Positions 1,859 through 30,439 of a stretch of 64,000 nt of DNA are shown here, one piece after another. The position numbers and the translations under genes were made by a program. Each line of letters starts with the position of its first letter. Within the stretch, counting starts at the first letter, position 1. The DNA is taken from contig JAWKQQ010000008.1 in the NCBI GenBank assembly GCA_041390065.1, positions 251,846 through 315,845 on the forward strand, given 5' to 3'. A model generated the notes under the pieces. It ran no database searches and was not told where the DNA came from. It was given only the letters and a program-made list of their open reading frames with translations. The DNA is from Candidatus Krumholzibacteriia bacterium (GTDB lineage: Bacteria; Krumholzibacteriota; Krumholzibacteriia; LZORAL124-64-63).

Positions 1859-1879
1859 GACCGGGCTCCTCGGCGGTGG

Positions 1880-3199
1880 CTAGAATTCCTGGGTCCAGCC
1901 CAGGCCGAAGCGCAGGCGCATGTCGTCGACCCGGGACTCGGCGGGCGTCACGAACCCGTCCGGGTAGGAAAAGATATGGGGAATCCCCCGACTCTGCAGC
2001 TTGTTGAGTTCCAGCGACAGCGCCAGGCGGCCGCTCGCGATGGGCCACGCCGTCCCCAGCGAGAACACCGAATTGCCGCCCTCGGGGTCGTTGTAGCTGT
2101 CATAGCGGCGAAAGCCCACGTTCATGTCCTGGCCGCCCTGGAAGGTGTGCTGCAGGCCGAGGCGCACGTCCACGACATTCTGCAGCTCGCGCGGGGAGGT
2201 GAGCCGGCTGTCGCCGAGGCCGGGACGATCGTCCTTGAGATCCTCGTAGTCGGTGAGGACGACGTCGACGGTGAGCACGGTGCGCGGGTCGTTCCGCGGA
2301 TAGAGCGCGGCGCCGAAACGCCAGCGGGCCGGGTACTCGAGGCTGTGGCTGGCGGTGCTGGCGGCCGTGGTGTCGAACTCGGCGGTGTAGGCCGTGACGT
2401 CCAGGTCGCCGTCCACCGAGAGGGGCGTCTCGTAGGCGATGCCGAGGCTGAGGCGCTCGTTGGGATGCACCTGCACGCCCAGCGTCGCGTTGACGCCGCC
2501 GAGGGCCCACTGGCTGCGGGTGTCGTAGCTCTGGTCGCCGTCGTCGGTCCGGTTGTCGCGGGACAGCCAGTGCTCGTTGCGGTCGCCGAAGGCGTAGTGC
2601 ACGGCGGCGCCGAACGCGACGCGGTCGGCCTCGCCCGCCAGGCCCAGGCTCAGGGTGCGCAGGGTGCCCTCCACCTCGTAGGTGCGCTCCTCGAGGATGC
2701 GGTCGCGCGGATCGGAGAAGACGTCGGGGTCGCGCACTTCCTCGGTGAACTCGTAGCTGAACGGATTGCGGTCGGCCAGCGAGAGCCCGACGCCCAGCGG
2801 CAGGTCGCCGAGGTCCAGCCGTCCGGCCAGCGCGAAGCCGCCCTCGAGCCAGGTGTGCTGGTTGCTCGCGATCGACATGTCGGTGACGAAGCTGCCGAAG
2901 CTGTCGTACAGCGGCACGAAGCGCTCTTCTTCGTGGTAGGCGAGGCCGACGCCGCCGTCCAGACGCCAGGCCGTGGCCCGGGACAGGCCCGCCGGGTTCA
3001 GGATGCTGGAGAAGCCGCCGCGGTAGGCCGCGCCCCCGGAGCCGCCGAGGCCGTTGATCTCGGCCGATAGCCAGGGGCTCTGGCCGCCGTAGGCCGACTC
3101 CAGGTAGCTCACCGCGCTCGCCGGCGTTGCCACCAAACCCAGCAGCATGGCCACCGCCAGGATGGCCGTGTAGACGCTGATATTCCGTCGCGTGGTCAT
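1880..3199 (-). CDS. outer-membrane beta-barrel protein (unknown family)
   Basis: Signal peptide MTTRRNISVYTAILAVAMLLGLVATPASA. Aromatic/Gly-rich alternating pattern and a C-terminal Phe (..GWTQEF). Confidence 0.5.
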   Translation of the reverse strand: MTTRRNISVYTAILAVAMLLGLVATPASAVSYLESAYGGQSPWLSAEINGLGGSGGAAYRGGFSSILNPAGLSRATAWRLDGGVGLAYHEEERFVPLYDSFGSFVTDMSIASNQHTWLEGGFALAGRLDLGDLPLGVGLSLADRNPFSYEFTEEVRDPDVFSDPRDRILEERTYEVEGTLRTLSLGLAGEADRVAFGAAVHYAFGDRNEHWLSRDNRTDDGDQSYDTRSQWALGGVNATLGVQVHPNERLSLGIAYETPLSVDGDLDVTAYTAEFDTTAASTASHSLEYPARWRFGAALYPRNDPRTVLTVDVVLTDYEDLKDDRPGLGDSRLTSPRELQNVVDVRLGLQHTFQGGQDMNVGFRRYDSYNDPEGGNSVFSLGTAWPIASGRLALSLELNKLQSRGIPHIFSYPDGFVTPAESRVDDMRLRFGLGWTQEF

Positions 3200-3233
3200 G
3201 GTCGTCTCCTCGTCCAGCTCGGGGCCGGAAGGC

Positions 3234-5795
3234 TTAGAAGCTGTAGTCCACCTGGAGCCGGACGTACAGGTCGTCCTTGGGGACGCGGGTGGCATCGTAG
3301 TCCAGACCGTAGGCGTCGCCGTAGCGGCGCACGTCGATGTTGTCGCGCGGTTCGCTGTGGTCGCGCGTGACCTTCAGCTGCACGAGCGTGCGGTCGGAGA
3401 TGCGGCTCTCCACCTTGAACCACTGCCGCCAGCCGTTGGCGTCGAGGAGCACGAACTCGTTGCCCTCGAAGTTCCAGAAGAAGCCGTCGTAGACCGTGGC
3501 CGCGCCGGTGAGCGTGAGCCAGGGCGTGACGTTGTGCTCGTAGCGCACCTCGAAGGCGTTGCTCGGGCTGCTGGCCATGCCCACGCCGCTGGCGTCGTCG
3601 TCCGGGTTGTCGGGGCTGCCCGGGTCGGCCGGGTAGGTGAGCCGCTGCCGGGCCGGGAAGTTGACGTTGCCCGTGACGTAGGTCAGCTGCAGCCGGTTGT
3701 AGTTGCTCAGCAGGACGATGGCCTGCAGGCGCGTCTCCCAGCTGCGGTAGGTGCGCACGTCGAGGTCGTTCTGCTCGGTGCGGGCGGAGATGCGCTCGCG
3801 CACGCGGAACCGCAGGTTGAACGTCGGCTGGTACTCCAGCTTCGCCGTCCAGCGCCACTGGTCGGCGCCGTCGGCCTTGCGCTGCCACTGATCGAACTGC
3901 AGGCCGTTGATGATGAACTGACGGCTGATGCGGTAGCGCATGTCCAGGAACAGGCCCCGCTCGCCCTTGGGCTGGGGGTTGTCGGTCGCGAGCAGGCTGT
4001 ACCATTCGTCCTCGAGGCGGTAGGGGCTGTCGAGGATGGTCTGCTCGTACCTGGAGTCGTTGCTGAACGACCGCATGTACGGGTTGTCGAAGCCGATGTC
4101 GTAGTCGCGGTAGATCGCGAGCAGGTGCAGGTTGTCCCACTGGGCGAAGAGGTTGGTGATGAAGGCGTCGTGGCGATCGCCCCTCAGGAACCCCTCGCGC
4201 GGGTCCTGCAGCCAGGCGTACTCCGCCTGCCAGGACAGGTTGCCGTACACCGCCTGGCCCTCGAGGCCGTAGATGCGGCGCCAGCGGTACTCGGTGACCG
4301 TGGTGTCGCCCGGGTCGGCGAAGACGCTGGTGTAGCCGGCCGCGATCTCGCTGTCGCGGGCCAGCCAGTAGTCGGACGTCGCACCGCCGGGCAGGATCTC
4401 GTCGGGGTTGGCGTCGAAGGGCCGCGTGTAGCCCGAGTGCAGCACCGTGGCCCCGACGTAGGTGCCCGGCGCGAGCATCTGCTTGACGTTAACGCCCACC
4501 AGGTTCTCGCGGAAGGCGTTGCGGGTGATGCCGGTCTCCTGGCCCGACAGGGTCGGCAGCGCGGCCAGCTCCCGCTCGGTGAATCGGGGACGCATGCTCA
4601 CGTACCGGTTGACCGTGCCGTCATCGTTGAGGATCCCGTCGCGCCAGTCGCTGGAGCCGAAGAGCGTGAGGTGGGTGTTGCCGATGGCGCCCTCGACGGC
4701 GCCGCCGGTGAGGCGGTACTCGCGGGTGGCGCTGAGGTCGCCGCGGACGCCCAGCGGCCGCTTGTTCCAGCCGAATCCGGTCTTGCGGAAGTGGATGAAG
4801 TCGGTGTTGTCCATCACCAGGCCGGAGCCGAAGGCCACCCGGAACGAGCCCGCCACGGCCCGCTTCAGGCGCACCGGCCCCAGCTGCTGGTTCTTGACCT
4901 CGACGTAGGCCTTGGCGGTCTCGTCCCAGTCGGCCTCGCCGAGGCCGCGGTAGGTGCGGGCGCCGGCCCGCCAGTTGCCCGGCAGCGCCACGCGCAGCTT
5001 GTGGGACATGGCCGGGTTCAGGGTCTGCGGGTACTTCGGCACCAGGACGCTGGAGTTCTCGTCGTCGCCGCCGTACAGGGGCGTGTCGTAGTACCGGATC
5101 TGGTAGTCGGCCCGGACCTTGTCCGGGTCGCCGAGCTGCGCGTCGTCGTAGACCACGAAGTCGCGCAGGTTGCGGTAGGCGAAGTAGCGCAGGCCGTCGG
5201 CGCGGCGCAGCTGGCGGCTGCTGGTGATGCCCCCCATGCGTTCGCGCGCGGTCATGATCGCCGTCGCGTCGACGGGCGACACGTTCTGGAAGCTCATGAG
5301 GTCGAAGAGGTCGAGGTCGTTGACGTTGACCGGGTCCTGGAGCAGGTCCAGGTACTCGTCCACCAGGCCCTCGTTACTGCCCTCCTGTCCCAGGTAGTTG
5401 CGCACCTGGCGGTAGCTGGCGGCCATGCGGGCGACGGCGGCGTCGGCCGCGGGCGGCGGCAGCACCGCCACCAGGGGCCGCAAGGTGAGGATGGTCTGGG
5501 GCGTGACGAGGTCGATGTCGCCGAGGTCGTAGATGTCGTCGAAGTAGCGCACGTAGGTGCGGTGGTCGTAGATGGCGCGCGCCTCGGCCGCGGGGATGGG
5601 CAGGGCCAGCAGCTCTTCCAGGCTCGCCGAGTTGAGGTCGAGCTTGCCCTGGGCGAGCGTCGGGCGGCTGCCCGGATCCGCGGCGGGCGCCGCGGTCGCG
5701 GACGCCGCCGTCAGCCAGCACACCAGCACGAACAGCCCGCCGAGCAGGGCCCGCGCCGCCGGCCGGCGATGCACGAGGAGGTTACGCACGGTCAC
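3234..5795 (-). CDS. large outer-membrane beta-barrel protein with N-terminal ComEA-like helix-hairpin-helix domain
   Basis: 853 aa with a signal peptide. LDLNSASLEELLALPIPAAEARAI is an HhH motif. The long beta-rich region ends in ..QVDYSF (OMP C-terminal Phe). Confidence 0.55.
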   Translation of the reverse strand: MTVRNLLVHRRPAARALLGGLFVLVCWLTAASATAAPAADPGSRPTLAQGKLDLNSASLEELLALPIPAAEARAIYDHRTYVRYFDDIYDLGDIDLVTPQTILTLRPLVAVLPPPAADAAVARMAASYRQVRNYLGQEGSNEGLVDEYLDLLQDPVNVNDLDLFDLMSFQNVSPVDATAIMTARERMGGITSSRQLRRADGLRYFAYRNLRDFVVYDDAQLGDPDKVRADYQIRYYDTPLYGGDDENSSVLVPKYPQTLNPAMSHKLRVALPGNWRAGARTYRGLGEADWDETAKAYVEVKNQQLGPVRLKRAVAGSFRVAFGSGLVMDNTDFIHFRKTGFGWNKRPLGVRGDLSATREYRLTGGAVEGAIGNTHLTLFGSSDWRDGILNDDGTVNRYVSMRPRFTERELAALPTLSGQETGITRNAFRENLVGVNVKQMLAPGTYVGATVLHSGYTRPFDANPDEILPGGATSDYWLARDSEIAAGYTSVFADPGDTTVTEYRWRRIYGLEGQAVYGNLSWQAEYAWLQDPREGFLRGDRHDAFITNLFAQWDNLHLLAIYRDYDIGFDNPYMRSFSNDSRYEQTILDSPYRLEDEWYSLLATDNPQPKGERGLFLDMRYRISRQFIINGLQFDQWQRKADGADQWRWTAKLEYQPTFNLRFRVRERISARTEQNDLDVRTYRSWETRLQAIVLLSNYNRLQLTYVTGNVNFPARQRLTYPADPGSPDNPDDDASGVGMASSPSNAFEVRYEHNVTPWLTLTGAATVYDGFFWNFEGNEFVLLDANGWRQWFKVESRISDRTLVQLKVTRDHSEPRDNIDVRRYGDAYGLDYDATRVPKDDLYVRLQVDYSF

Positions 5796-6679
5796 TCACC
5801 GCCCCACGCCCAGGACAGGCCGAACTGGTGGGTGCTCTCGAGCACGCCGCCACCGGTGGAGAAGCCGTAGCTCAGGGCCGCCTCGCCGAAGCGGTAGCCG
5901 AAGCCCGCGGTGAGCTTGTTGGGCCTCGTGATCAGGCCGGCGCGCAGCACCAGGCCTTCGAGCACGTCGAACTCCATGCCGGCGTGCCATTGCGGATCCT
6001 CGCCGTGCACGTTCTCGAGCTCGAACACCGTGAGCACCCCCGCATACGGCTCGTAGGCCAGACCCGCCTGCAGACGGCGCGGCAGCTCCTCCTCGTCGCG
6101 GCCGATCTTCGGCGCGTTCACGTTGTGCACCAGCACGCCCATGTGGGTGCGGTCGTGCAGCGTGGCGGCGAAGCCGACGTCGAGGCCCGTGGTGAGGTCG
6201 CTGCCGGGATCCAGGCCGCTGACCGTCTCGCCGAACTCCAGGCGGTAGAGGTTCAGCCCCACGCCCAGGTTGATGCGCGAGTGGACGTCGGCGTACAGCG
6301 GCAGGCCGTAGGCCACGGTCAGCGTGCTCTCGGTCTGCAGGTCGACGTTCTGGTACTCCACGCCGTACTGCCGGAAACCCAGGCCCAGGCTGCCGGCCTC
6401 GCCGGGCAGGCGCAGGGCGGCGCCCAGGTAGTAGAGGCGGTGGAAGTCCAGGCTGTAGGGCTGGACGTAGCTGACGCCCACCTCGCCATCCGTGGCCAGG
6501 CGCGCGAGCTGCGCGGGATTGAGGGTGGCCGCGAACGTGGCGTCGTCCACGGCCACCGAGGCGTCGCCCATGGCGCGGGCCCGCGGGCTGGTCATCAGGT
6601 TCTCGAAGGCCGCCCGGGCCGGCGCCACCAGAGTGACGAGGCTCACGAGGACCACCATCGCTGCAAGTCTGCGCTTCAT
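5792..6679 (-). CDS. PorP/SprF-like (or PorV/FadL-like) outer-membrane beta-barrel protein
   Basis: 295 aa with signal peptide ..APARA. N-terminal SPRARAMGDASVAVDDATFAATLNPAQLA motif as in PorP/SprF/PorV families. It lies immediately downstream of a gene encoding a protein with a type-B-like CTD. Confidence 0.45.
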   Translation of the reverse strand: MKRRLAAMVVLVSLVTLVAPARAAFENLMTSPRARAMGDASVAVDDATFAATLNPAQLARLATDGEVGVSYVQPYSLDFHRLYYLGAALRLPGEAGSLGLGFRQYGVEYQNVDLQTESTLTVAYGLPLYADVHSRINLGVGLNLYRLEFGETVSGLDPGSDLTTGLDVGFAATLHDRTHMGVLVHNVNAPKIGRDEEELPRRLQAGLAYEPYAGVLTVFELENVHGEDPQWHAGMEFDVLEGLVLRAGLITRPNKLTAGFGYRFGEAALSYGFSTGGGVLESTHQFGLSWAWGGE

Positions 6680-6696
6680 CGTCGGTCACTCCCTCG

Positions 6697-9429
6697 CTAG
6701 TCCAGCCGCGTGGCCACGACCACGGGTGCGGTTTTCTCGGTGCGCTCGCCGGAGACCAGGTCCACGGCCTGCAGGTGCACCACGTACATGCCCGCCCGGA
6801 CCCTGGCGAAGGTCTCGTCGCGGCCGTCCCAGCTGACGATGGTGGGGAACTCGGGAATGCCCGAGACCGCCCCGTCGAAGCGGCTGTCCCACAAGGTCAC
6901 GATCACCCGACCCTCGAGGTCGATGATGCGCAGCCGGGTCTCGGAGTTCTCCTTGGTCACGATGGAGATGGGGAAGCGTTCGCCCAGCTCGGGCAGGAAC
7001 GTGCGCGCGGGCACGCTCAGGCCGATGTCGTTCACCGGCTCGAGGCCGGCCAGGAAGACGCCGGGCGTGGGGATGGCGAGCTCGAAGGTCGCCGTCCAGT
7101 CCTCGCTGGTCTCGTCGCGGCCGCCGACGCCGTTGCTGCCCACGGTGAGCTGGGTGCCCTCGTCGGCGTCGATGCGGGTGTAGGAGCGGTCGCCGGAGGA
7201 GTCCACATCGACGAACCAGTCCTGATCGGCCACCGGGGTGTCCGGCTGGTAGCCGGGCACCAGGGATTTGTCGAAGCCCACCCGGAAGTTGCCGGTCTTC
7301 TCGTTGCCGAACATGAACACGTCGATGTCGGTGACCAGCGGCTCGCCCTCGGCCCAGTAGTAGAGGATCACGGGCTCGCCGTAGAACTCCTCGAGTTCGG
7401 GGATGCCCTTGGGCAGCTGGTCGGCGCTGGTGCCGGACGAGCGGCCGGGCGTGAAGATGCTGTTGCCCGGGAGATCATCGGGCGGGTTGACGAACACCGG
7501 CCGCATGGCCGGCACGCCCTCGACCGAGAGGTCGTCGGCGTAGAGCTCGATGTCGGGCAGGCGGCTGTAGATGCGCTCGAACCAGCCGCTGCTGGCGATC
7601 GACAGCACCAGCGTCTGGCCGGCGCCGAGCACGTAGCCGTCGGGGAACCGGGCGGTGAAGTCGTTGTAGTGGCCGCCGCCGACGGTCTGCTGCGTGGGGT
7701 TGCCCGCGGTGATGGCCCAGTAGACCTGGGTGCTGAAGTTGTAGTTGATGGCGTCGGTCAGGTAGTAGTTGCTCAGATCCACAGGGAAGCTGTTGGGGTT
7801 GTGGATCTCCACGAGCTCCGGCGCGATCTGGGCCATGCTGGTGAACGGGTAGATGTTGCGGCCCGCGTTCACCTCGGTGATCAGCAGCTTGGCCGGGCCC
7901 GTGGCGGCGTCGGTGAACGTGACCGAGGCCGTGGTCGAGGGCGCGCCGTCGGGGAAGACGTCGCTCTGCGCGTTGCCGTCCACCACCTCGACGTACCAGG
8001 CCACCACCGTGCCCGCGGGCTGGCCGGGGATCTCGCCGGTGAGCGTCGCGCCGTCGGCCATGAGGCCGGCGGTCTGGAACGCGCCGCCGGCGACCGCATA
8101 GTGGAGGGTGCCGGAGAGGTCGAGGTCGACCGCGTCGACGTGCACGGTGATGAGGCAGGGCGTGCCGTTGAACGCGCTGCCGGCGGTCGCGCTGGTGATC
8201 ACGGGCGCCGGCACGCCCTCGACGACCAGGAGGCGCGGGAGGGCGTCGGCATTGGCCGGCCAGACGGCCGTGCCGCCGCCCGTGCCGGTGATGGTGGCGT
8301 ACCACGCGATCTCGACCCCGCCGGACTGGCCGGGGATGGCCGCCGACCACATGCCGGCGGTCACCTGGCTGCCCGCCGCCTGCTGCCATGAACCGCCGTC
8401 GATCCGGAAGTGGACGGCCATGGCCGCGAGCGGGTCGTAGCTCAACGCCGTGAGCGTGACGTCGGTCGCCAGACCGGCATACGCGTCGCCGACCGAGCCG
8501 GCGGTCACGATCGGCGCCGGCGCCAGGGGCGTCGCCGCCGGGCCGGCCGGGGTCTGGTCCGAGACCACGTCCCAGCTGCCCGCGAGGTCCTCGCTGGTCT
8601 CGTCGTGACCGGTGGCGCCGTTGCCGCCGCTGGCGTCCTCGCTGGTCTCCACGGCACCCGTGCGCACGAGCGCCTGGCCGAACGTGGGAACCGTGCCGGC
8701 GGAGATCTGGCTGGCCGCCGGGGTGTCGGCCAGGTAGGTCGAGGGGGTCGCGCCGGCATCCGGGCCGTCGACGCTCACGTCGGTCTTGTCGACGCGCACG
8801 TTGGTGGAGGTTCCGTAGATCAGGTAGTCGAGGTCCTGCACCAGGTCGCTCGCACCGTCCCAGCGGTAGAGGACGATGCTGTCCGAGGCCCCCGACCCGC
8901 TGGCCAGGGCCGGCGTGTTCGAGCCGGTCGAGCCGAGGCCCGCGCCGATGCTGCCCGGGAAGGCCTCCCGCATCTCCGCCACCGCGTCGGGCGCGATGCC
9001 GTCCTCGAAGAGCTCGAGGTCGGGCAGGTAGCCGTAGGCCTGCTGGAACTGCGTGCTGCCGCTGAGGGAGATCACCAGGGTGTCGCCCGCGGCGAGGCTC
9101 AGGCCGACCGGGAAGCGCGCATGCACGTTGCCGGAGGTGCCGCCGCCCTGACCTGCGCCCGTCACGATGTTCCAGTAGAGCTTGCCGAGCGCCACGTCCT
9201 GCGCCGTCGACAGGTAGACGTCGTCGAGGGCGATCGCCGCACCCGTGGGGTTGACGATCTCGATGAACGGGCTGCCGAAGGTGGACACGGGGTTGCGGGT
9301 GACGACGACCACCTCGCTCAGGAGCAGATGGTCGGCCTCCTGGGCCAGCAAGGCGGCCGGCAGGAGCAGCAGGGCCAGCAGGGCCAGCGGCCTCCGGCAC
9401 CGACGCTCGGGACTCCGGTCACGGGTCAT
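6697..9429 (-). CDS. secreted lamin-tail-domain (LTD) repeat protein with T9SS type-B-like C-terminal domain
   Basis: Start chosen at MTRDRSPERRC..LLLLPAALLAQ (signal peptide). Two LTD motifs (LLLSEVVVVTRNP..FIEIVNPTGAAIALDDVYL and LLITEVNAG..ELVEIHNPNSFPVDLSNYYL). The C-terminus (..SWDGRDETFARVRAGMYVVHL..) resembles the gliding/T9SS type-B CTD. Confidence 0.6.
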   Translation of the reverse strand: MTRDRSPERRCRRPLALLALLLLPAALLAQEADHLLLSEVVVVTRNPVSTFGSPFIEIVNPTGAAIALDDVYLSTAQDVALGKLYWNIVTGAGQGGGTSGNVHARFPVGLSLAAGDTLVISLSGSTQFQQAYGYLPDLELFEDGIAPDAVAEMREAFPGSIGAGLGSTGSNTPALASGSGASDSIVLYRWDGASDLVQDLDYLIYGTSTNVRVDKTDVSVDGPDAGATPSTYLADTPAASQISAGTVPTFGQALVRTGAVETSEDASGGNGATGHDETSEDLAGSWDVVSDQTPAGPAATPLAPAPIVTAGSVGDAYAGLATDVTLTALSYDPLAAMAVHFRIDGGSWQQAAGSQVTAGMWSAAIPGQSGGVEIAWYATITGTGGGTAVWPANADALPRLLVVEGVPAPVITSATAGSAFNGTPCLITVHVDAVDLDLSGTLHYAVAGGAFQTAGLMADGATLTGEIPGQPAGTVVAWYVEVVDGNAQSDVFPDGAPSTTASVTFTDAATGPAKLLITEVNAGRNIYPFTSMAQIAPELVEIHNPNSFPVDLSNYYLTDAINYNFSTQVYWAITAGNPTQQTVGGGHYNDFTARFPDGYVLGAGQTLVLSIASSGWFERIYSRLPDIELYADDLSVEGVPAMRPVFVNPPDDLPGNSIFTPGRSSGTSADQLPKGIPELEEFYGEPVILYYWAEGEPLVTDIDVFMFGNEKTGNFRVGFDKSLVPGYQPDTPVADQDWFVDVDSSGDRSYTRIDADEGTQLTVGSNGVGGRDETSEDWTATFELAIPTPGVFLAGLEPVNDIGLSVPARTFLPELGERFPISIVTKENSETRLRIIDLEGRVIVTLWDSRFDGAVSGIPEFPTIVSWDGRDETFARVRAGMYVVHLQAVDLVSGERTEKTAPVVVATRLD

Positions 9430-9736: not shown

Positions 9737-11212
9737 ATGCGCGACCCCTTCGCCGCCCTGACCCGCAAGCAGCGGCTACAAGCCTGGCGGCTGACGGCCG
9801 ACCGCCTGGTGCGGCGCCCCTGGCGCCCGGGCCGCCTCGTGCGCCGGCATGAAGGCCCCGCCAACCTGGTGCTCGTGGGGATCGACACCCTGCGCCGCGA
9901 CCACGTCACTCCCGAGCTCATGCCCAATCTGCTCGCCCGGGCGTCCGCCGGATTCGATTTCATGGACACCTCGGCGCCTGCCCCGTGGACCCTGCCCTCG
10001 TTCGCGGGCGCGCTCACCGGCCTGATGCCCGCGCAGCACGGGGCCCGCCTCACGGGCGACGTGCGCAATATGGACCGCCAGCCCCCCGGCCGCCTGCGCA
10101 GCGATGTGACCACGCTCGCCGGCCACCTCGCCCGGCAGGGTTACCGGACCTGCGCCGTCTACGCCAACCAGTTCTTCGCCTTCGGCCTGGCCGAGAGCTT
10201 CGGCGAGCACGTCTACCGCAACCTCCGGGCCGACGCCCTGCTGGACGTGGCGCTGGAGTGGATCCGCCGCCACGCCGACGGCCCCTTCTGCTGCTTCGTG
10301 CTCCTGAACGACCCCCACGAGCCCACCACGCCCCGGCCGGCGCTGCTCGAGCCGGAGCTGGCCCGGCTCGACGTGCCGCCGCCGCATGCACGCGAGTTGC
10401 GCGCCCTCGCGGGCTGGGGCGACCCCGCCCGGCCGCAGGCTCACCTCGGCCTCTGCGGCTGGCCGTTGCCCGAAGCGGCCCGGCGGGCGCGCAAGCTCAA
10501 GGCGGCCATCTACCGGGCGGTCGTCCACGAGGTGGACCTGGCGCTCGGGCGTTTCCTCGGCCGCCTCGACGCCTGGGGCCTCACCGACCACACGCTTTGC
10601 AGCGTCTTCAGCGATCACGGCGAGGAGTTCTGCGACCACGCCGCCGAGGCCCACGCCTGGGACCACGATCCCCGGCGGGTGCGCGGCATCGGTCATGGCC
10701 ACACCCAGTTCCAGGAGCTGCTCGGCGTACCGTGGTTGGGCTGGGGGGCGGGTGTGCCGCAACGCGGGCGGGTGGCGCGGCCGGTCTCGCTGCTCGACCT
10801 CACGCCCACGCTGGTCGACTGGCTCGGCCTCGCACCGTTCCCGCTGCCGCCGCTGCCGCTGGCCGCCCTGGGCGGCCGTTCCCTCGCCGCCGGGACGGAC
10901 ATCGACGACGATCGTCTGCTCCTGGCCGAGGCCATCGCCTACGGCCCGGACGTGGTGGCCCTCCGGCGTGGCCGCTGGAAGCTGATCGCGCACCGCGACG
11001 GCCGGCCGCTGGGCCTCTACGACCTCGCCGCCGACCCGCGCGAACGCGACGACCGCCAGCAGGCCGAGCCGGAGGTCCTGCGATCGCTCCGGCAGGACCT
11101 CGCGGTCTGGCGCGAGGCCGCGCCGTCGTTCGACGGACACGGCCGCCGCGGCTGGGACTCGCTCACCAGCGAGGTCCGCCAGCGGCTGAAGGACCTCGGC
11201 TACGGCGAGTGA
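9737..11212 (+). CDS. sulfatase / alkaline-phosphatase superfamily protein
   Basis: Start at ATG 9737 inside the longer ORF 9245..11212. LVLVGIDTLRRDHV metal-site motif. Contains TGLMPAQHG and the DPHEP region. Confidence 0.65.
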   Translation: MRDPFAALTRKQRLQAWRLTADRLVRRPWRPGRLVRRHEGPANLVLVGIDTLRRDHVTPELMPNLLARASAGFDFMDTSAPAPWTLPSFAGALTGLMPAQHGARLTGDVRNMDRQPPGRLRSDVTTLAGHLARQGYRTCAVYANQFFAFGLAESFGEHVYRNLRADALLDVALEWIRRHADGPFCCFVLLNDPHEPTTPRPALLEPELARLDVPPPHARELRALAGWGDPARPQAHLGLCGWPLPEAARRARKLKAAIYRAVVHEVDLALGRFLGRLDAWGLTDHTLCSVFSDHGEEFCDHAAEAHAWDHDPRRVRGIGHGHTQFQELLGVPWLGWGAGVPQRGRVARPVSLLDLTPTLVDWLGLAPFPLPPLPLAALGGRSLAAGTDIDDDRLLLAEAIAYGPDVVALRRGRWKLIAHRDGRPLGLYDLAADPRERDDRQQAEPEVLRSLRQDLAVWREAAPSFDGHGRRGWDSLTSEVRQRLKDLGYGE

Positions 11213-11227
11213 TCCCCCGGACGCGGA

Positions 11228-12307
11228 TCAGTCGACGCAGCGCGTGATCACCTGTCCGGCGAGCTCGAGGAAGATCTCGCGGATCGGCCCGGCATCCTTC
11301 TGCAGCATGAGCGGCCGCCCCGTGTCGCCGCCCTCGCGGATCCGCATCTCCAGGGGGATCTGCGCGAGCAACGGCAGGTCGAACTGCCGCGCCACCCGCT
11401 CGCCGCCGCCGGTGCCGAAGATGTCGTACCGCCGGCCGTTGTCCGGGCACAGGAAGTAGCTCATGTTCTCGACGATGCCGAGCACGGGCACGTCGACCTG
11501 CCGGAACATCTGCACGCCGCGCCGCACGTCGGCCAGCGCCACCTCCTGCGGCGTGGTCACCATCACCACGCCGGCCACCGGCGTCTGCTGCACGAGGGTG
11601 AGCTGGGCGTCGCCGGTACCGGGCGGCATGTCCACGACGAGGTAGTCGAGATCCTCCCAGACGGTGTCCTTGAGGAACTGCTTGACCGCCGAGAACACCA
11701 TGGGACCGCGCCAGATCACCGCCTGCTCGGGGTCGATCAGCAGGCCCATGCTGAGGACCTGCAACCCGTGGGCGCGCCCGGGATGGATCCTGCGGTCCGC
11801 GGTCACCTCGGGCGCCTCGGTCACGTCCAGCATGGTGGGCAGCGAGGGACCGTAGATGTCGGCGTCGAGGAGACCGACGCGCAGCCCCTCCTGGACCAGA
11901 GCCAGCGCCAGGTTCACCGCGACCGAGCTCTTGCCCACGCCGCCCTTGGCGCTCGCCACGGCCACCACGCGGCCGACGCCCGGCAGGCGCTCGCGGTCGG
12001 CCCACGGGTCGGGCGACTGGCCATGCGGGCCGGCGGCGGCGGTCTTCTGGGCCTTCCCGGCGCCGGAGCGGTCATCCACCTCGACGGACAGGTTCTGCAC
12101 GCCCGGCAGCCGGCGGAGGCGTTCCGGGCCGCCTCGCACACGGCCGCGATGGTCTCCTGCTTCTCGGTCGTGCGGACGATCCGCACCACCACCTCGCCGT
12201 CCTGGATCTCGATGGCGCCCACGAGGTCGATCTTGACGATATCGACCTTGGTGCCGGGGACCTTCCTCGCGCAGGGCGGCGAGGATGTCGTCACGGGTCA
12301 GGCTCAA
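11228..12307 (-). CDS. apbC: Mrp/ApbC Fe-S cluster carrier ATPase (apparent frameshifts near 12110 and 12260)
   Basis: N-terminal MIP18-like (DUF59) segment VDIVKIDLVGAIEIQDGEVVV is read in a second frame. The P-loop VAVASAKGGVGKSS and the ParA-like body are in the main frame. The two shifts compensate. Confidence 0.75.
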   Translation of the reverse strand: MSLTRDDILAALREEGPRHQGRYRQDRPRGRHRDPGRRGGGADRPHDREAGDHRGRVRGGPERLRRLPGVQNLSVEVDDRSGAGKAQKTAAAGPHGQSPDPWADRERLPGVGRVVAVASAKGGVGKSSVAVNLALALVQEGLRVGLLDADIYGPSLPTMLDVTEAPEVTADRRIHPGRAHGLQVLSMGLLIDPEQAVIWRGPMVFSAVKQFLKDTVWEDLDYLVVDMPPGTGDAQLTLVQQTPVAGVVMVTTPQEVALADVRRGVQMFRQVDVPVLGIVENMSYFLCPDNGRRYDIFGTGGGERVARQFDLPLLAQIPLEMRIREGGDTGRPLMLQKDAGPIREIFLELAGQVITRCVD

Positions 12308-14922: not shown

Positions 14923-16101
14923 ATGGGTCTTCTCGACAAGGTTCACCAGTTTCAGACGGCGCGCCAGCTCATGGCCGCCGGTCTGTACAATTACTTCCGG
15001 CCCATCGAGACCGCGCAGGAGAACACGGTCCGCTACAACGGCCGTGAAGTCATCATGCTCGGCAGCAACAACTACCTGGGCCTCACCAATCACCCCAAGG
15101 TGAAGGAGGCCGCCAAGGCGGCCCTCGACAAGTACGGCAGCGGCTGCGCCGGCTCGCGCTTCCTCAACGGCACCCTCGACGTGCACGTGCAGCTCGAGCG
15201 CAAGCTGGCCGACCTGGTGGGCAAGGAGGAGGCGCTGGTGTTCTCCACCGGCTTCTTCGCCAACCTGGGCACCATCAGCACCATGGTCGGCCGCAACGAG
15301 ACCGCGATCGTCGACCGCACCGACCACGCGTCGATCATCGACGGCTGCCGCATGAGCTTCGGAAACGTGCGCAAGTACAAGCACCAGGACATGGAACACC
15401 TCGACTACTGCCTCGAGCAGGAGCGGGACGTCAACAAGCTGGTGATCGTCGACGGCGTGTTCTCCATGGAAGGCGACGTGGCCAGGTTGCCGGAGATCGT
15501 GCCGCTGGCGAAGAAGCACGACGCCCTGGTGATGGTGGACGACGCCCACGGCGTGGGCGTGATGGGCAAGCACGGCCGCGGCACCTGCGACCACTTCGGG
15601 GTGACCGACGACGTGCACCTCATCGTGGGCACGTTCAGCAAGAGCCTGGCCTCGGTCGGCGGTTTCGTGGCCTCCGACGCCGACACCATCCACTACATCA
15701 AGCACCTGGCGCGGGTGATGATCTTCTCGGCGAGCCCCCCGCCCGCGTCGGTGGCCTCGGTGTCGGCCGCCATCGACGTCATGCTGGAAGAGGAATGGCG
15801 TCACGAGCAGCTCTGGCGCAACACGCGGATCCTCATGGAGCGCCTCCGGCAGGCCGGCTTCGACACCGGCCCGAGCGAGACCCCCATCATCCCCGTGGTG
15901 GTGGGCGGCGACGTGGAGACCTACCGCATGTGCGTCCGCTGCTGGGAAGAGGGCGTGTTCGTCAACCCGATCGTGTCGCCCGCCGTCGAGCCGGGCAACG
16001 CGCTGCTGCGGCTGTCGCTCATGGCCACCCACACCGAGGACGAGATCCACAAGGCCATGGACATCATGGTCAAGGTGGGCAAGGAAGTGGGCGTGATCTA
16101 G
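14923..16101 (+). CDS. spt: serine palmitoyltransferase (alpha-oxoamine synthase family, PLP-dependent)
   Basis: 392 aa. GTFSKSLASVGGFVAS PLP-lysine motif and ..MIFSASPPPASVASVSAAIDVM.. closely resemble bacterial SPT. Homologs with other functions in the same family (BioF, Kbl, CapB) are not fully excluded. Confidence 0.75.
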   Translation: MGLLDKVHQFQTARQLMAAGLYNYFRPIETAQENTVRYNGREVIMLGSNNYLGLTNHPKVKEAAKAALDKYGSGCAGSRFLNGTLDVHVQLERKLADLVGKEEALVFSTGFFANLGTISTMVGRNETAIVDRTDHASIIDGCRMSFGNVRKYKHQDMEHLDYCLEQERDVNKLVIVDGVFSMEGDVARLPEIVPLAKKHDALVMVDDAHGVGVMGKHGRGTCDHFGVTDDVHLIVGTFSKSLASVGGFVASDADTIHYIKHLARVMIFSASPPPASVASVSAAIDVMLEEEWRHEQLWRNTRILMERLRQAGFDTGPSETPIIPVVVGGDVETYRMCVRCWEEGVFVNPIVSPAVEPGNALLRLSLMATHTEDEIHKAMDIMVKVGKEVGVI

Positions 16102-16123
16102 CGACTCCGCGGCCGGTTCCGGT

Positions 16124-16156
16124 GGGGGCGGCTCGCTGGCCGCCCCCTTTCTTCTT
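16124..16156 (+). terminator. intrinsic terminator-like hairpin after spt
   Basis: GGGGGCGGC-tcgctg-GCCGCCCCC: perfect 9-bp GC stem, followed by TTTCTTCTT. Confidence 0.5.
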
Positions 16157-16286
16157 CATCCCGGCGCCGACGGCCAGGCGGCGAAGGCGCCGGGACGGCC
16201 GCCGCGGCCACCCGCCAACCCGACTCTTGCCATCGCGGCCCGTTGCAGGCACCCTAGCGGCATCACCCCCTCAGGAGGCTTCGCCG

Positions 16287-17411
16287 TTGAGCGTCACCGT
16301 CACCCCCGTCCGCGACAAGCGCGACCTGGCCCAGTTCCTGCGGATCCCCTACCGGATCTACGGCAAGAACCACCCCCAGTACGTGCATCCGCTGATCGCC
16401 CAGATGAAGGCCTTCCTCGACCCGAAGAAGAACCCGTTCTTCCGCCACGCCGACACGCAGCTCTGGGTGGCCCGCGACGGCGCCATCCCCGTCGGCCGCA
16501 TCGCCGCCTGCGTCGACGCGAGCAGCAACGAATACCACGACGAGCTCGTCGGCTTCTTCGGGTTCTACGAGGCCCCCGACGACCCCGAGGTGGCCCGGGC
16601 CCTGCTCACGACCGCCGCGAACTGGATCAAGGACCAGGGCATGGCCACCATGCGCGGCCCCGGGTGCTTCACCACCAACCACGACTACCTCGGCCTGTTG
16701 ATCGACGGTTACGAGCGTCGGCCCGTGCTCGGCATGCCGTGGCAGCCGCCCTACTACCGGCCGCAGTTCGAGCAGTTCGGCCTGGTCAAGGCCAAGGACC
16801 TGCTGGCCTGGGACTTCCGCGTCGAGGGCAACCGCATGCCCGAACGCATGGCGCAGTTCGCCGAACGCTTCGAGAGCCGCAAGGACTTCACCATCCGTGG
16901 GTTCCGCATGGACCGCTTCTGGGAAGAGGTGGAGATCGTGCGCGGCCTCTATTACGACGCCTGGAAGGACAACTGGGGCTTCGTCCCCCTCGACGAGGAG
17001 GAGTTCCGGCACCTCGCGAAGGACATGAAGAGCATGGTCGACCCGGGCCTGTTGCTGATCGCCGAACGCGACGGCGAGCCCATCGGCTTCTCCATGTCGA
17101 CGCAGGATTTCAACGAGGCGCTCAAGCCCCTGAACGGCGCCCTGCTCCCCTTCGGCTGGCTCCGGTTCCTGCTGGCCAAGCGCCACATCAAGGGCTGCCG
17201 GACCCTGCTGCTGGGCGTCAAGCCGGAGCACCGCCAGCGCGGGGTCGACACGCTGCTGGTCTACGAGAGCATCAGGTACGGCCTGACGCGGGGCTACGAC
17301 CACAGCGAGGCGTCCTGGATCCTCGAGGACAACGTGGCCATGAACCGCGCGCTCGAGAAGCAGGGCGCCAAGGTCAAGAACATCTACCGGATCTTCGAGA
17401 AGGACGTGTGA
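16287..17411 (+). CDS. GNAT-fold acyltransferase (candidate bacterial ceramide synthase, bCerS-like)
   Basis: TTG start preceded by AGGAGG. GNAT motif A LGVKPEHRQRGVDTLL. Stop overlaps the next start (TGATG). Confidence 0.55.
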   Translation: MSVTVTPVRDKRDLAQFLRIPYRIYGKNHPQYVHPLIAQMKAFLDPKKNPFFRHADTQLWVARDGAIPVGRIAACVDASSNEYHDELVGFFGFYEAPDDPEVARALLTTAANWIKDQGMATMRGPGCFTTNHDYLGLLIDGYERRPVLGMPWQPPYYRPQFEQFGLVKAKDLLAWDFRVEGNRMPERMAQFAERFESRKDFTIRGFRMDRFWEEVEIVRGLYYDAWKDNWGFVPLDEEEFRHLAKDMKSMVDPGLLLIAERDGEPIGFSMSTQDFNEALKPLNGALLPFGWLRFLLAKRHIKGCRTLLLGVKPEHRQRGVDTLLVYESIRYGLTRGYDHSEASWILEDNVAMNRALEKQGAKVKNIYRIFEKDV

Positions 17412-18417
17412 TGGCCGCGGCCGTGGTGGTGACCGGTGCGTCGGGGTTCCTCGGCAGCCACGTCTGCGACGTGCTCCTGGAGCGCGGCCTGGCCGTGCGC
17501 GCCGCCCACCGCGCGTCGAGCAACCTGCGTTGGCTCAAGGACAAGGACCTCGCGACCGTGTCCGTCGACCTCGCGCGGCCCGACGAGGCGCGGCCCTCGT
17601 GGACGGTTGCCGGGCCGTGGTCCACTGCGCCGGCGTGGTGATGGCCGACGCGGCCACCTACGAGCGGGTGAACGTGGACCTGACCCGCGCCCTGCTCACG
17701 GCCGCCGCCGCGGCCGGCACCGTCGACACCTTCGTCCTGATCAGCTCCCTGGCGGCCGGCGGTCCCGCCGGCCTGCGGCAACCGCGCGGCGAAGGCCAGC
17801 CCGACCGGCCCATCTCCCACTACGGCCGCAGCAAGCTGGCCGCCGAGGGGCTCCTCGCCGCCGGCTGGCCCTTCCGCACCGCGGTGCTGCGGCCCCCCTC
17901 GCTCTACGGCCCCCGCGACCGCGAGTTCGGCCCCCTGCTGCGCGCCGCGTCCCGCGGCTGGACCGCGCGTTTCGGCCGCGCGATGGACGGACTCAGCCTG
18001 GTGCACGGACGCGACGCGGCCGCGGCCGCCGTGGCGCTGCTCGACGCCCCCGGCGCGGTCGGCGTCTACCACCTGGACGACGGCCCCGGCCTCGACGGCC
18101 CCCGCGACCCGGGCCGCCGCTGGCCGTGGGGCTACGACTGGAACGAGTTGCACACCGCCCTGACCTGGCTGTTCGGCCGCTCCGTGCGCCGCCTGGAGAT
18201 CCCGCTGGGCCTGCTGCGCCTGGCGAGCCGGCTCGCGGGCGAGCGGCGCTTCCGTTCGCCCGTCCTGCACCCCGACCGCATCCGCGACCTCGACACGCCG
18301 GGCTGGGTGTGCACCGCCGAGCGTCTGCGCCGCGACACCGGCTGGCTGCCCGTCCACAACCTGGCCAGCGGCCTGCGCGACACCCTCGACTTCTACCGCC
18401 GCCGCGGGTGGATGTGA
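17411..18417 (+). CDS. NAD-dependent epimerase/dehydratase-family reductase (candidate ceramide reductase CerR-like; apparent frameshift near 17590)
   Basis: VVTGASGFLGSHV Rossmann motif in the first frame. The continuation in a second frame (from 17530) carries the catalytic YGRSKLAAE. Confidence 0.6.
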
Positions 18418-19379
18418 TGCGACGATTCCTGGCCGACCTGCGTCCCTGGCGACGCCCCTACGACTGGTACGGGATCATCTACGCCCTCACGTCGGCCTGG
18501 TATCCCCTGCTGCATCCGGACTGCTTCGAGGTCCTGGCGCAGCCGGGCCCCCTGCAGACTCCGTTCGGGCACCTGGCCGTCCACCTGATGGCCGCCCTCC
18601 TGATGTTCCTCGCACCGCCGGTGCTGCGCCGACGCGGCGGTCGGATCGGCCGCGTGTTCGGCCTCATCTACCTGCCGCTCCTGTTCGGGCAGTTCTACGG
18701 CGAGCTGGCGTACCTCGGGGTGGTCTTCCGCGACTACGGCCATTCCTTCGACCCCGCGCTCATCGATCTCGAGCAGGCCCTCTGCGGCCTGCAGCCGAGC
18801 CTCGCGTGGTCGCGGGCCTGGCCCTGGCCGTGGCTGCTCGAGCTCATGGAGTTCGCCTACTTCAGCTACTACGCGTTCGCGGCCCTCGGCCTGGGGCTGA
18901 TCTGGCTGGCCAGCGGCCGCGACACCGCCACGCGGTGGGCGAACTCCGAGGCGCTGGTGCGCGACCTCAGTGCCGTCATGCTCACCTGCTACGCCTGGTA
19001 CACGTTCTTCCCGGTCTGGGGGCCCAAGTACTTCGCGTACCTGGGCGTGGCCGGATCGGTCGAGAGCGAGGGGCTGCGGGGCTGGGTGTTCACCGACCTC
19101 ATGCGCTGGATCCACGCCCACGGCGCCCTGCAGGGCGCGGCCTTCCCGTCGAGCCACGTCGCGGGCAGCCTGGTGAGCTGGTGGTGGGGCTGGAAGGTGG
19201 CGCCGCGACACCGCGGCTGGCTCACCGGACTGTGGGTGCTGCTCTGCCTGAGCATCGTCTACTGCCGCTACCACTACGTGGTCGACCTGCTCGGCGGACT
19301 CGCGTGGGGCGCGCTGATCGTCTGGCTGGTGGCGCGGTTCGGGACGGCCGAACGCCCGCCGGTGGGCGGGCGTTCGTGA
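18417..19379 (+). CDS. PAP2-superfamily integral membrane protein (candidate sphingolipid head-group phosphotransferase)
   Basis: Start MRRFLADL overlaps the upstream stop (TGATG). Multiple TM helices. Motifs FPSSHVAG and CRYHYVVDLLGG match the SGH and HYxxD motifs of the PAP2/LPT family. Confidence 0.6.
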   Translation: MRRFLADLRPWRRPYDWYGIIYALTSAWYPLLHPDCFEVLAQPGPLQTPFGHLAVHLMAALLMFLAPPVLRRRGGRIGRVFGLIYLPLLFGQFYGELAYLGVVFRDYGHSFDPALIDLEQALCGLQPSLAWSRAWPWPWLLELMEFAYFSYYAFAALGLGLIWLASGRDTATRWANSEALVRDLSAVMLTCYAWYTFFPVWGPKYFAYLGVAGSVESEGLRGWVFTDLMRWIHAHGALQGAAFPSSHVAGSLVSWWWGWKVAPRHRGWLTGLWVLLCLSIVYCRYHYVVDLLGGLAWGALIVWLVARFGTAERPPVGGRS

Positions 19380-19892: not shown

Positions 19893-20111
19893 GCGCGATC
19901 TCCACTTCGATTTAGTATCTGCATAACTCATTGACTAAATGTAACGACGATTCCGGGGCTGTCAAGCCTCGCCGGTCATTCCGGAGTGTATCCTATCGGC
20001 CGCCGGCGGCCCGACGCGAGCGCGAAATCGCTGGCCCCTGGCCGCCGATGCCTTATGATTTGCCCAGTTCGTGCCCGAAGCGCCGCCCGCACCATCCGGA
20101 GGCCCCGTCCC

Positions 20112-21823
20112 GTGAGCGAAGCCAAGTTCCGCCGCACCCTCGTCACCGCCGCCCTGCCCTACGCCAACGGCGAGATCCACCTCGGCCACCTGGCCGGCGC
20201 CTACCTGCCCGCCGACTTCTACGTCCGCTACCTGCGGCTGCGCGGCCGGCCCGTGCTGTTCATCTGCGGCACCGACGAGTATGGCGTGCCCATCACGCTG
20301 ACCGCCGAACGGGAGGGCATCAGCCCCAAGGACCTCGTGGACCGCAACCACGAGTCGATCAGGCGCAGCTTCGAGGGCCTGGGCATCGCCTTCGACAACT
20401 TCTCGCAGACCAGCCGCCCCATCCATACCGAGACCGCGCAAGCCTCTTCAAGGACCTCCACGCCCAGGGCAAGCTGATCCAGAAGACGTCGCAGCAATTC
20501 TACAGCCCCAGCCAGAACCGGTTCCTGGCCGACCGCTACATCGAGGGCACCTGCCCCAAGTGCAGCAGCGCCGGCGCTCGCGGCGACCAGTGCGAGTCGT
20601 GCGGCAGCAGCCTCGACCCCACCGACCTCATCGACCCGCACGACGTGCTGCGCGGCGAGCCCCTGGAACTGCGCGACACCGTCCACTGGTACCTGCCGCT
20701 GGGCGACTGGCAGCCCCGGCTGGAGGAATTCATCGATGCCCATCCGGAATGGAAGGACAACGTCAAGCAGTACTGCCGCTCCTGGTTCAAGGACGGCCTC
20801 GGCGACCGCGCCGTCACCCGCGACATCGCCTGGGGCGTGCCCGTGCCCCTGCCCGACCACGAGGGTAAGGTCCTCTACGTGTGGTTCGACGCGCCCATCG
20901 GCTACATCTCGAGCACCCGCGAGTGGGCCCACGAGCAGGGCGATCCCGAGGCCTGGCGCGTGTGGTGGCAGGACCGCGAGACGCGCCTCGTCCACTTCAT
21001 CGGCAAGGACAACGTGGTCTTCCACACGCTGATGTTCCCGGCCATGCTGATGGCCCACAGCGAGCCCTGGATCCTGCCCGACAACGTGCCGGCCAACGAG
21101 TTCCTCAACCTCGAGGGCCGCAAGCTGTCCACCAGCCGCGGCTTCGCCGTGTGGCTGCCGGAGTATCTGGCGTCCTACCAGCCCGACCCGTTGCGTTACG
21201 TCATGGCCCGCAACCTGCCCGAGACTCGCGACATGAACTTCACCTGGGAGAACTTCCTGGCGCGCAACGACAACGAGCTGGGCAACAACTTCGGCAACCT
21301 CATCAACCGGGTGTTCACCTTCGTCCACCGGTACTTCGACGGCCTGGTGCCCGAATGGACGGAGGAGGCCATGCTGCCGATGGACCACGCGGTGCTCGCC
21401 GAGGTGGCCGAGCTGCGCGAACGGTGGGCGACCCACCTGGAGCGGTTCGAGGTCAAGGCAGCCATGGAATGCGCGTTCGCCGCCGGCCAGGCGGGCAACC
21501 GCTACTTCGACGAATCGGCGCCGTTCACCAGCCGCAAGACCGACCTCGTTCGCTGCGGCCAGAGCCTCGCCGTGTCCCTGCAGGTGCTGCGACAGCTGGC
21601 GCTCATGCTCGCGCCCATCTGCCCGTTCGGCATGGAGAAGCTCTGGCGGTGGCTGGGCATGGAGACGCCGCTGTTCTTCGGCGCCTGGGACGAGGGCCTG
21701 CGGCCCTTGCCGGCCGGACGCGAGCTCGGCCAGCCGGAGATCCTGTTCCCGCGCCTGGATCCGGACCTGATCCAGGCCGAGGTGGACCGGCTGCAGCAGC
21801 TGGTGGAGGACAAGCCCGCCTGA
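20112..21823 (+). CDS. metG: methionyl-tRNA synthetase (short form; apparent frameshift near 20443)
   Basis: GTG start after GGAGG. The N-terminus (..PYANGEIHLGHL..) is in the ORF frame starting at 19986. The remainder (..KMSKS-class body, WYLPL.., anticodon-binding domain) is in the frame of ORF 19931..21823. Confidence 0.85.

Positions 21824-30415: not shown

Positions 30416-30439
<24 letters not shown>

Follow-up and report, generated by a model that had tools for sequence, protein, structure and literature searches.

Do four adjacent genes in a Candidatus Krumholzibacteriia genome encode a complete route to a sphingolipid and, if so, what does the last of them contribute? In the window (the whole stretch of 64,000 nucleotides that was analysed), open reading frames and sequence reading place genes for an alpha-oxoamine synthase (spt), a GNAT acyltransferase, an SDR reductase and a PAP2_3 membrane protein, in this order on the + strand, at 14923-19379. 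The organism was identified through an NCBI protein with 100% identity. A sequence-only reading had already described these genes with the same positions and order, together with a hairpin and TGATG overlaps at 17411 and 18417, all of which we find; its reductase, however, is not a single open frame. From the sequence comparisons it is quite likely that the locus is a sphingolipid biosynthesis cluster whose pathway ends in a phosphosphingolipid, as each enzyme assignment (Spt, GNAT, SDR and PAP2) passed a direct test: it combines the three known bacterial ceramide genes with a gene for an Aur1-like enzyme, and the organism probably makes a phosphosphingolipid. The pathway itself is known, and the cluster adds an example of it rather than a new type of system.

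The spt gene (14923..16101, +) encodes a 392 aa protein that resembles serine palmitoyltransferases of the CFB/Sphingobacterium type. It is assigned to PF00155 (208 bits in the Pfam search; the PLP-dependent class I/II aminotransferase fold), and its PLP-lysine motif GTFSKS and its DDAHG align with those of Sphingobacterium multivorum Spt. The best of 23 NCBIfam models is NF047600 (SerpalmtaseCFB), with 574.6 bits (short of the equivalog cut-off of 640 bits) and a lead of 155 bits, compared with 419 bits or less for the BioF/Kbl models. The closest solved structure is likewise S. multivorum Spt (PDB 3a2b; 448 bits, 53% identity over 387 aligned positions), against 305, 268, 222, 206, 137 and 221 bits for the BioF, Kbl, ALAS, CqsA and cysteate acyltransferase set, 305 bits being the score of a BioF/Kbl enzyme structure. 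In a neighbor-joining tree (the only method used, with only two outgroups, Escherichia coli BioF and Kbl) the protein forms a clade with S. multivorum Spt, and BioF and Kbl fall outside in 100 out of 100 bootstraps. The enzyme is thus Spt-like, as had been proposed, and clusters with neither BioF nor Kbl.

The spacer between spt and the GNAT gene is 185 nt long, compared with about 60-85 nt in three other Krumholzibacteria loci (L004-L006). It contains a terminator-like hairpin with a T-rich tail (16124..16157, +): a stem of 10 bp (9 G-C pairs) with a loop of 4 occupies 16124-16147, 22 nt past the spt stop codon, and is followed by TTTCTTCTTC. The hairpin is present in both the MFE and the centroid folds, but by itself it is statistically unremarkable (one terminator-like site found vs 1.9 expected in shuffles; a weak folding z-score of -1.36). 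It is possible that spt is transcribed apart from the other three genes. These are probably co-translated, given their stop-to-start TGATG overlaps at 17409-17413 (GNAT/SDR) and 18415-18419 (SDR/PAP2).

The best start of the GNAT gene (16287..17411, +; 374 aa) is a TTG at 16287, 8 nt behind a GGAGG ribosome-binding site (16274..16278, +); the resulting N-terminus, MSVTVTPVRDK, resembles those of orthologues (e.g. MPVTVAPVRDK in locus L001) and fits this start. PF00583 covers residues 227-360, the AF2 model (pLDDT 92) has a tandem-GNAT fold, and sequence reading locates an acyl-CoA binding motif, RQRGVD, at residues 314-319. Alignments running from residue 1 to residues 372-374 link the protein to E. 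coli YghO (36% identity, E 2e-73), to an acyltransferase of a Sphingomonas cluster (33%, E 6e-66) and to a GNAT of a Streptomyces cluster (40%, E 1e-90), all in full length. The GNAT and spt products are also found as natural fusions: two proteins, P0149 (780 aa) and P0229 (777 aa), align with the Krumholzibacteriia Spt in their N-terminal half (47-52% identity) and with the Krumholzibacteriia GNAT in their C-terminal half (38-44%). An acyltransferase of the OlsB type, acting in ornithine-lipid synthesis, was considered and rejected: at E <= 0.01 the protein's Pfam matches are limited to PF00583 and PF13508, and no NCBIfam model matches it, so the OlsB affinity that would have told against the original proposal was not found. 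We take PF13444 to be the family in which OlsB proteins would be expected. YghO and the Sphingomonas acyltransferase are given as orthologues of the Caulobacter ceramide synthase CC_1154 (PMC9386255), and through these published orthologues the GNAT is supported as a candidate ceramide synthase of the bCerS/YghO family, in line with the bCerS-like assignment proposed earlier.

The third gene (17411..18417, +) encodes an extended SDR of 335 aa once a deletion of 1 nt is repaired. It belongs to the Epimerase family (PF01370, 100.8 bits in Pfam), and its repaired translation contains the glycine-rich NAD(P) motif TGASGFLG and a YxxxK motif, YGRSK. It aligns in full length with the cluster reductases of E. 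coli (ECD_02852-like), Sphingomonas and Streptomyces (127, 112 and 103 bits), while the best PDB match covers the N-terminal half only (56.6 bits) and the best NCBIfam model is HpnA (81 bits), although these scores come from different programs and are only roughly comparable. Membership through the published E. coli and Sphingomonas orthologues supports a putative CerR-type reductase. The family and the CerR-type match of the earlier proposal therefore stand, but not its one open reading frame: as assembled, one frame runs from 17411 to about 17590 and the next frame over continues to 18417. A DNA alignment shows a single base absent near 17592/17593, and intact orthologues (334-345 aa) align on either side of the break.

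The homologies, folds, motifs and conserved linkage suggest substrates and an order of steps. Spt would make 3-ketosphinganine from L-serine and a long-chain acyl thioester. Since neither a dedicated ACP nor an acyl-ACP synthetase is encoded in the cluster, this thioester is probably acyl-CoA. The tandem-GNAT of the bCerS/YghO family would then N-acylate the long-chain base, and the CerR-type SDR would reduce the 3-keto group, giving dihydroceramide. The PAP2_3 protein would most likely take a phospho-alcohol head group off a glycerophospholipid and attach it to the 1-hydroxyl of ceramide, like Aur1 and the sphingomyelin synthases. The product would be a phosphosphingolipid, for which our guess is ceramide phosphoethanolamine, with phosphoglycerol or phosphoinositol as alternative head groups.

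The fourth gene (18417..19379, +; 320 aa) encodes an Aur1/sphingomyelin-synthase-like PAP2_3 membrane protein, a candidate ceramide phospho-head-group transferase. It had been called a PAP2 membrane protein, which is borne out (PF14378, 51.2 bits vs a cut-off of 27), and its motif alignment and Foldseek matches show it to be, moreover, Aur1-like. The triad formed by the His of C2 and the His-x3-Asp of C3 (H247, H286 and D290) is invariant in 46 orthologues. PAP2 phosphatases and this protein have a common core fold. By its model the protein appears nearer in fold to Aur1/SMS than to PAP2 phosphatases. At the sequence level Aur1 is matched weakly (E 7e-5, about 15% identity) and only across the catalytic motifs; SMSr (PDB 8ijq) matches less well than Aur1, and a plain sequence search detects no similarity to it.

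Might the protein be a lipid phosphate phosphatase instead of a head-group transferase? It would then act on ceramide-1-phosphate or on the phosphate of a sphingoid base, or it would be of the PgpB/LpxE/UppP type, and the cluster would yield plain dihydroceramide or else a lipid whose modification takes place elsewhere. We consider this unlikely: the phosphatase C1 motif K-x6-RP is absent, the canonical C3 Arg position has no Arg (S-I-V-Y-C-R-Y-H aligns with S-T-M-Y-L-T-H-H of Aur1), Aur1 aligns over 261 residues vs 159-176 for phosphatases, and the top three Foldseek matches are all sphingolipid head-group transferases. More doubtful still is a decay of the pathway in this strain, with a real frameshift in the SDR gene leading to no dihydroceramide or only to a build-up of oxo-ceramide. 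The break does stand in the sequence as given; but most likely it is an assembly error, since a single-base gap of the same kind also interrupts metG, an essential gene 3 kb downstream. On either side of the break conservation with L001 is still good (58% and 70% identity), and the reductase is intact in nine out of nine relatives examined.

Other rivals concern the amino acid used by the first enzyme. With alanine or glycine in place of serine the enzyme would form 1-deoxy bases, and lysine is a further option; the GNAT and SDR would then act on that different product. This reading is compatible with the score below the Spt equivalog cut-off and with Black Sea lipidomes in which 1-deoxy-, lysine- and sulfono-ceramides of unassigned origin occur beside diverse Spt-like genes (PMC11334938). 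We nevertheless find it very improbable, given that the enzyme is 53% identical to an Spt that is specific for serine and has a characterised structure, and given that the co-operonic Aur1-like enzyme would need a 1-hydroxyl, which only serine would provide. The capnine/sulfonolipid pathway, which had been offered as an alternative, joins cysteate and acyl-CoA before reduction and N-acylation; it employs the same enzyme classes (AOS, SDR and acyltransferase), and sulfonolipids are known in the related phylum Bacteroidota (PMC9304779). Here, however, it is barely credible and we reject it: the cysteate acyltransferases 28eh and 7u7h (SulA/CapB type) score 221-222 bits against the synthase vs 448 for Spt, the GNAT and SDR match ceramide-pathway orthologues, and the hydroxyl on which an Aur1-like enzyme would act is absent from C1 of capnine.

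The preferred reading, a phosphosphingolipid cluster, concerns a gene arrangement far more conserved than chance would allow. All Krumholzibacteria loci examined (L001-L007, L013 and L093) have it, and the four families are found together in other phyla, with identical order in Eisenbacteria, Gemmatimonadota, Planctomycetota and Acidobacteria. Among 80 species-representative GNAT loci from more than 15 phyla, the AOS gene adjoins the GNAT gene in 59 and both AOS and SDR genes are present in 39; all four genes are found in 11, in identical order in eight. Only 14 of the 80 have a PAP2 homologue, so PAP2 is an accessory, not a core component. Separate co-locations include all four genes in Nonomuraea and an SDR-PAP2_3 pair in Prevotella. 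Locus L008 has another order (reductase, ACP, spt, ATP-binding protein, lptF, lptG, desaturase, GNAT), which agrees with the published Sphingomonas paucimobilis locus-tag series DRN02_007875 to 007910.

The most original lead is the recurrent fourth gene, whose Aur1-like product is a concrete candidate for attaching a phospho-head-group to ceramide in bacteria. We see even chances that it represents a widespread uncharacterised family of Aur1-like phosphosphingolipid synthases acting on ceramide, whose genes sit in spt-bcerS-cerR operons of Krumholzibacteriota, Eisenbacteria, Gemmatimonadota, Planctomycetota, Acidobacteriota and Nitrospirota at least and, in Prevotella, accompany the gene for a CerR-like reductase. 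If so, the family would account for the head-group step that has been missing from the pathway in many uncultured phyla, and it might include the unassigned ceramide-phosphoethanolamine or ceramide-phosphoglycerol synthase of Bacteroidota. To our knowledge, genetic evidence for head-group attachment is limited to the Bacteroides inositol lipid (BT_1522) and the Cpg route of Caulobacter, which is unrelated, and Krumholzibacteriota is a candidate phylum without a cultured member. Predicted sphingolipid-making capacity now reaches this phylum. Its description as a lineage not known for sphingolipids holds for Krumholzibacteriota, as the literature searched has no joint mention of the two, although predictions of Spt-like genes already extend to about 40 phyla (PMC11334938). 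The compact, self-contained cluster of four genes, with no ACP system, would be an easy target for heterologous expression, and for environmental lipidomics it is a possible source of the sphingolipids found in anoxic settings.

Among known head-group enzymes, the yeast inositol phosphorylceramide synthase Aur1 has a partner, Kei1, which the Krumholzibacteriia protein, at about 15% identity, does not; human SMSr, a ceramide phosphoethanolamine synthase, resembles it less than Aur1 does. BT_1522, the PI-dihydroceramide synthase of Bacteroides thetaiotaomicron, adjoins genes for inositol-phosphate synthase and PIP-synthase (PMC9246714), whereas the Krumholzibacteriia gene lies inside a ceramide operon; the two are likened by description and gene context only. 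The three ceramide genes, adjacent here, reportedly do not form a cluster in Bacteroidota (PMC11334938). S. multivorum Spt (PDB 3a2b and 8guh), which has the GTFSKS and DDAH motifs in common with our protein, comes from a different phylum. For Caulobacter, we take CC_1154 to be CCNA_01212 (bCerS) and CC_1164 to be CCNA_01222 (CerR). The ceramide pathway of Caulobacter, E. coli B and Sphingomonas (Spt, CC_1162; bCerS/CerS, CC_1154, orthologous to yghO, PMC9386255; CerR, CC_1164) has the same three enzyme families, clustered on the genome, and the Krumholzibacteriia GNAT and SDR are homologous in full length to its E. coli and Sphingomonas members. Unlike that pathway, the Krumholzibacteriia cluster has no dedicated ACP (AcpR), acyl-ACP synthetase (AasR), LptF2/G2 or Cpg-type head-group genes. 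Its Spt is of the CFB type, as opposed to the 'Rhodobacteria' type, and its spt-bcerS-cerR order with overlapping genes is not that of the Caulobacter-type pathway but that of Streptomyces locus L009.

The four genes occupy 14923–19379 on the plus strand of the window (G+C content ∼70%) in the order in which the sequence-only reading had placed them: an alpha-oxoamine synthase gene (AOS; 14923–16101), an N-acyltransferase gene (GNAT; from a TTG start at 16287, with a GGAGG site ahead of it, to 17411), an Epimerase-family reductase gene (SDR; 17411–18417), whose frame is broken in the assembly, and a PAP2_3 membrane protein gene (18417–19379). Both TGATG overlaps are present in the sequence. 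The GNAT and PAP2 proteins each match, at 100% identity, an NCBI protein of a 'Candidatus Krumholzibacteriia bacterium' MAG.

The top NCBIfam model for AOS is SerpalmtaseCFB (574.6 bits, under its cut-off of 640), which scores 155 bits over any BioF/Kbl model. Its closest solved structure is the characterised serine palmitoyltransferase (Spt) of Sphingobacterium multivorum (448 bits, 53% identity over 387 positions), followed by a BioF/Kbl enzyme (305 bits), Sphingomonas Spt (278–286), Kbl (268) and BioF (222). When E. coli BioF and Kbl served as outgroups in a neighbour-joining tree, the window AOS and S. multivorum Spt formed a clade that left out both in 100 of 100 bootstraps, and a wider clade that adds the Sphingomonas and E. 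coli Spt proteins did so in 91 of 100. We infer that AOS is a Bacteroidota-type serine palmitoyltransferase, in keeping with its first description as Spt-like: best model and best structure are both Spt, and AOS falls outside BioF/Kbl. The sulfonolipid pathway, proposed earlier as the alternative because it uses the same enzyme classes, failed its tests, as the cysteate acyltransferases of sulfonolipid synthesis score only 221–222 bits against AOS.

The GNAT protein matched no NCBIfam model and had no relative in a sequence search of the PDB; its predicted structure is a tandem GNAT (pLDDT 92). Plasmid records, searched in translation, supplied the key link to recognised clusters. Aligned along its full length, GNAT shares 36% identity with E. 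coli YghO, whose gene neighbours code for fatty acyl-AMP ligase, Epimerase-family reductase, ACP and AOS, and 33% with an acyltransferase of Sphingomonas parapaucimobilis, encoded among genes for a reductase, ACP, Spt, an ATP-binding protein, LptF, LptG and a desaturase. With a Streptomyces GNAT, which belongs to an AOS–GNAT–SDR operon of overlapping genes, identity is 40%. Both yghO (ECD_02850) and S. paucimobilis DRN02_007910 are listed as orthologues of CC_1154, the Caulobacter N-acyltransferase (bCerS) needed for dihydroceramide (PMC9386255). This full-length homology points to GNAT as a member of the bacterial ceramide synthase family, the class to which it had been assigned from the start; the alternative, OlsB, failed its test. 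The E. coli locus (1349–9128 of a PN43 record labelled plasmid) holds the whole sphingolipid cluster of the E. coli B type (lptF, lptG, spt, ACP, reductase, acyl-AMP ligase and yghO) adjoining the glc operon. As B strains have an spt/yghO cluster of their own (PMC9386255), BL21-type hosts are unsuitable for testing the window genes.

The reductase had been read as a single gene, but this overlooked a break in its frame. Residues 6–58 of the intact 339-aa orthologue from a Krumholzibacteria relative match the frame at 17423–17581, and residues 64–338 match the neighbouring frame at 17596–18414; nucleotide alignment with two relatives places one missing base near 17592/17593. The break may mark a true pseudogene. 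The reductases of all nine relatives examined are intact, however (334–345 aa), and metG, the essential methionyl-tRNA synthetase gene 3 kb downstream (20106–21823, plus strand), also lacks one base near 20441/20442 when compared with two relatives, so that an indel error in the assembly would be the simplest reading. Two indels among 12 syntenic genes (SDR and metG) likewise suggest that the assembly carries such errors. A third frameshift, suspected in the oxaloacetate decarboxylase alpha gene from a partial Pfam match, was ruled out, as the N-terminus is intact in frame.

When repaired, the SDR protein aligns end-to-end with the reductases of the E. coli, Sphingomonas and Streptomyces clusters (127, 112 and 103 bits, respectively), whereas among solved SDRs the best match scores 56.6 bits and covers the Rossmann half only. 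For the repaired protein, the top NCBIfam model is HpnA (81 bits against a cut-off of 367); it carries an NAD(P) motif and a YxxxK pair. ECD_02852 and DRN02_007875 are listed as orthologues of the Caulobacter ceramide reductase CC_1164 (PMC9386255). By its full-length match to three recognised clusters, SDR probably belongs with the CerR-type reductases, as had been claimed.

The third coupled gene does encode the PAP2 membrane protein expected there, and the protein is Aur1-like. It matches PF14378, and many of its orthologues also match PF14360 (sphingomyelin synthase C-terminal family). For a profile of 46 orthologues, yeast Aur1 was the best solved relative (E 7e-5), with a match spanning AFPSSH...HYVVD against AFPSLH...HHYFVD; H247, H286 and D290 are invariant among the 46. 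The phosphatase C1 motif K-x6-RP was not found in the protein. For the structural model (pLDDT 89), the first three Foldseek hits were Aur1 with ceramide, Aur1–Kei1 and human SMSr. The PAP2 protein therefore looks like a candidate head-group transferase rather than a phosphatase. In Bacteroides, phosphoinositol-dihydroceramide depends on an Aur1 homologue, BT_1522 (PMC9246714).

The order AOS–GNAT–SDR–PAP2_3 is kept in every Krumholzibacteria locus fetched, in a common housekeeping synteny (Mrp, NUDIX, STAS and Memo/AMMECR1 upstream; a zinc ribbon and MetG downstream). Because Memo/AMMECR1 adjoins the cluster in Krumholzibacteria alone (two of 80 loci), a functional link between the two was rejected. 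These 80 loci, from >15 phyla, were found by scanning GTDB species representatives with a phylum-level GNAT alignment: an AOS homologue is present in 59, AOS and SDR in 39, a PAP2 homologue in 14 and all four genes in 11. The gene order is identical in eight, from Krumholzibacteria, Eisenbacteria, Gemmatimonadota, Planctomycetota and Acidobacteria MAGs. In the actinobacterium Nonomuraea gerenzanensis (3756–8214 of its locus), AOS (minus strand; it matches in two pieces), GNAT, SDR and a convergent PAP2 homologue all adjoin. In Prevotella sp. oral taxon 299 (5621–7633), a CerR-like Epimerase-family SDR gene is followed 4 nt on by a PAP2_3 gene, with no inositol-lipid genes beside them, and this pair could be a Bacteroidota counterpart of the window SDR–PAP2 pair. 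In the AOS–GNAT–SDR operon on a plasmid of Streptomyces sp. NBC_01001, the fourth, overlapping gene (10048–11295) encodes a condensation-domain protein in place of PAP2, which hints at a different modification of the ceramide-like product.

An exhaustive phmmer search returned 7764 GNAT relatives among 50%-identity representatives. Some are ∼780 aa long and carry an Spt-like domain, 47–52% identical to the window Spt, fused to the bCerS-like GNAT (e.g. the metagenomic proteins P0149, 780 aa, and P0229, 777 aa); the metagenomic P0181 (648 aa, partial) is a fusion of this kind too. Another protein, P0121 (784 aa), aligns with the GNAT query in two separate regions and has a double set of GNAT Pfam matches; it is apparently made up of two bCerS-like copies in tandem.

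A terminator had been placed after AOS. The hairpin 3′ of the AOS stop is G+C-rich with a T-rich tail, but is not statistically unusual against the scan's own shuffles, and the spt–GNAT spacer is only 60–85 nt in some relatives, so that transcription of spt on its own is at most plausible. One Krumholzibacteria relative has a beta-helix (NosD/Pel9A-like) gene on the opposite strand (6559–7773, minus) between spt and GNAT, making spt and the remaining cluster separable transcription units there.

No gene that would have pointed to the head group or acyl donor (inositol-phosphate synthase, CDP-alcohol transferase, ACP or acyl-ACP synthetase) turned up in Pfam scans of 20 other large ORFs of the window. 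Elsewhere in the window, two adjoining very large minus-strand ORFs (30416–36560), of 1216 aa (FG-GAP repeats) and 835 aa (FG-GAP repeats and a histidine-kinase ATPase domain), have its highest G+C content (0.75–0.76). Short minus-strand ORFs follow one another at 50000–64000, where G+C falls to 0.64–0.67; this part resembles a region of ribosomal-protein genes.

The steps can be predicted from gene linkage and from what is known of each family. Spt would form 3-ketosphinganine from serine and an acyl thioester, probably acyl-CoA because the cluster has no AcpR/AasR pair; GNAT would N-acylate it and SDR would reduce the 3-keto group, the order of these two steps being debated even for Caulobacter (PMC11087976). 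The Aur1-like enzyme would then take a phospho-alcohol off a glycerophospholipid and attach it to the C1 hydroxyl of ceramide; any choice of head group is a guess.

The Spt/bCerS/CerR pathway, defined in 2021–2022, is often encoded by clustered genes. A Black Sea study had already predicted Spt-like genes in MAGs of ∼40 phyla; its supplements, as far as examined, do not mention Krumholzibacteria (PMC11334938). Literature searches brought up no relevant paper on a bacterial ceramide-phosphoethanolamine synthase or on PAP2 in combination with bacterial Spt, and no description of a recurrent Aur1-like fourth gene or of Spt–bCerS fusions was found in the searched literature; these two are the parts worth pursuing. 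The window cluster itself would be a new member of the known ceramide pathway, in a phylum that we did not find mentioned together with sphingolipids in the searchable literature.
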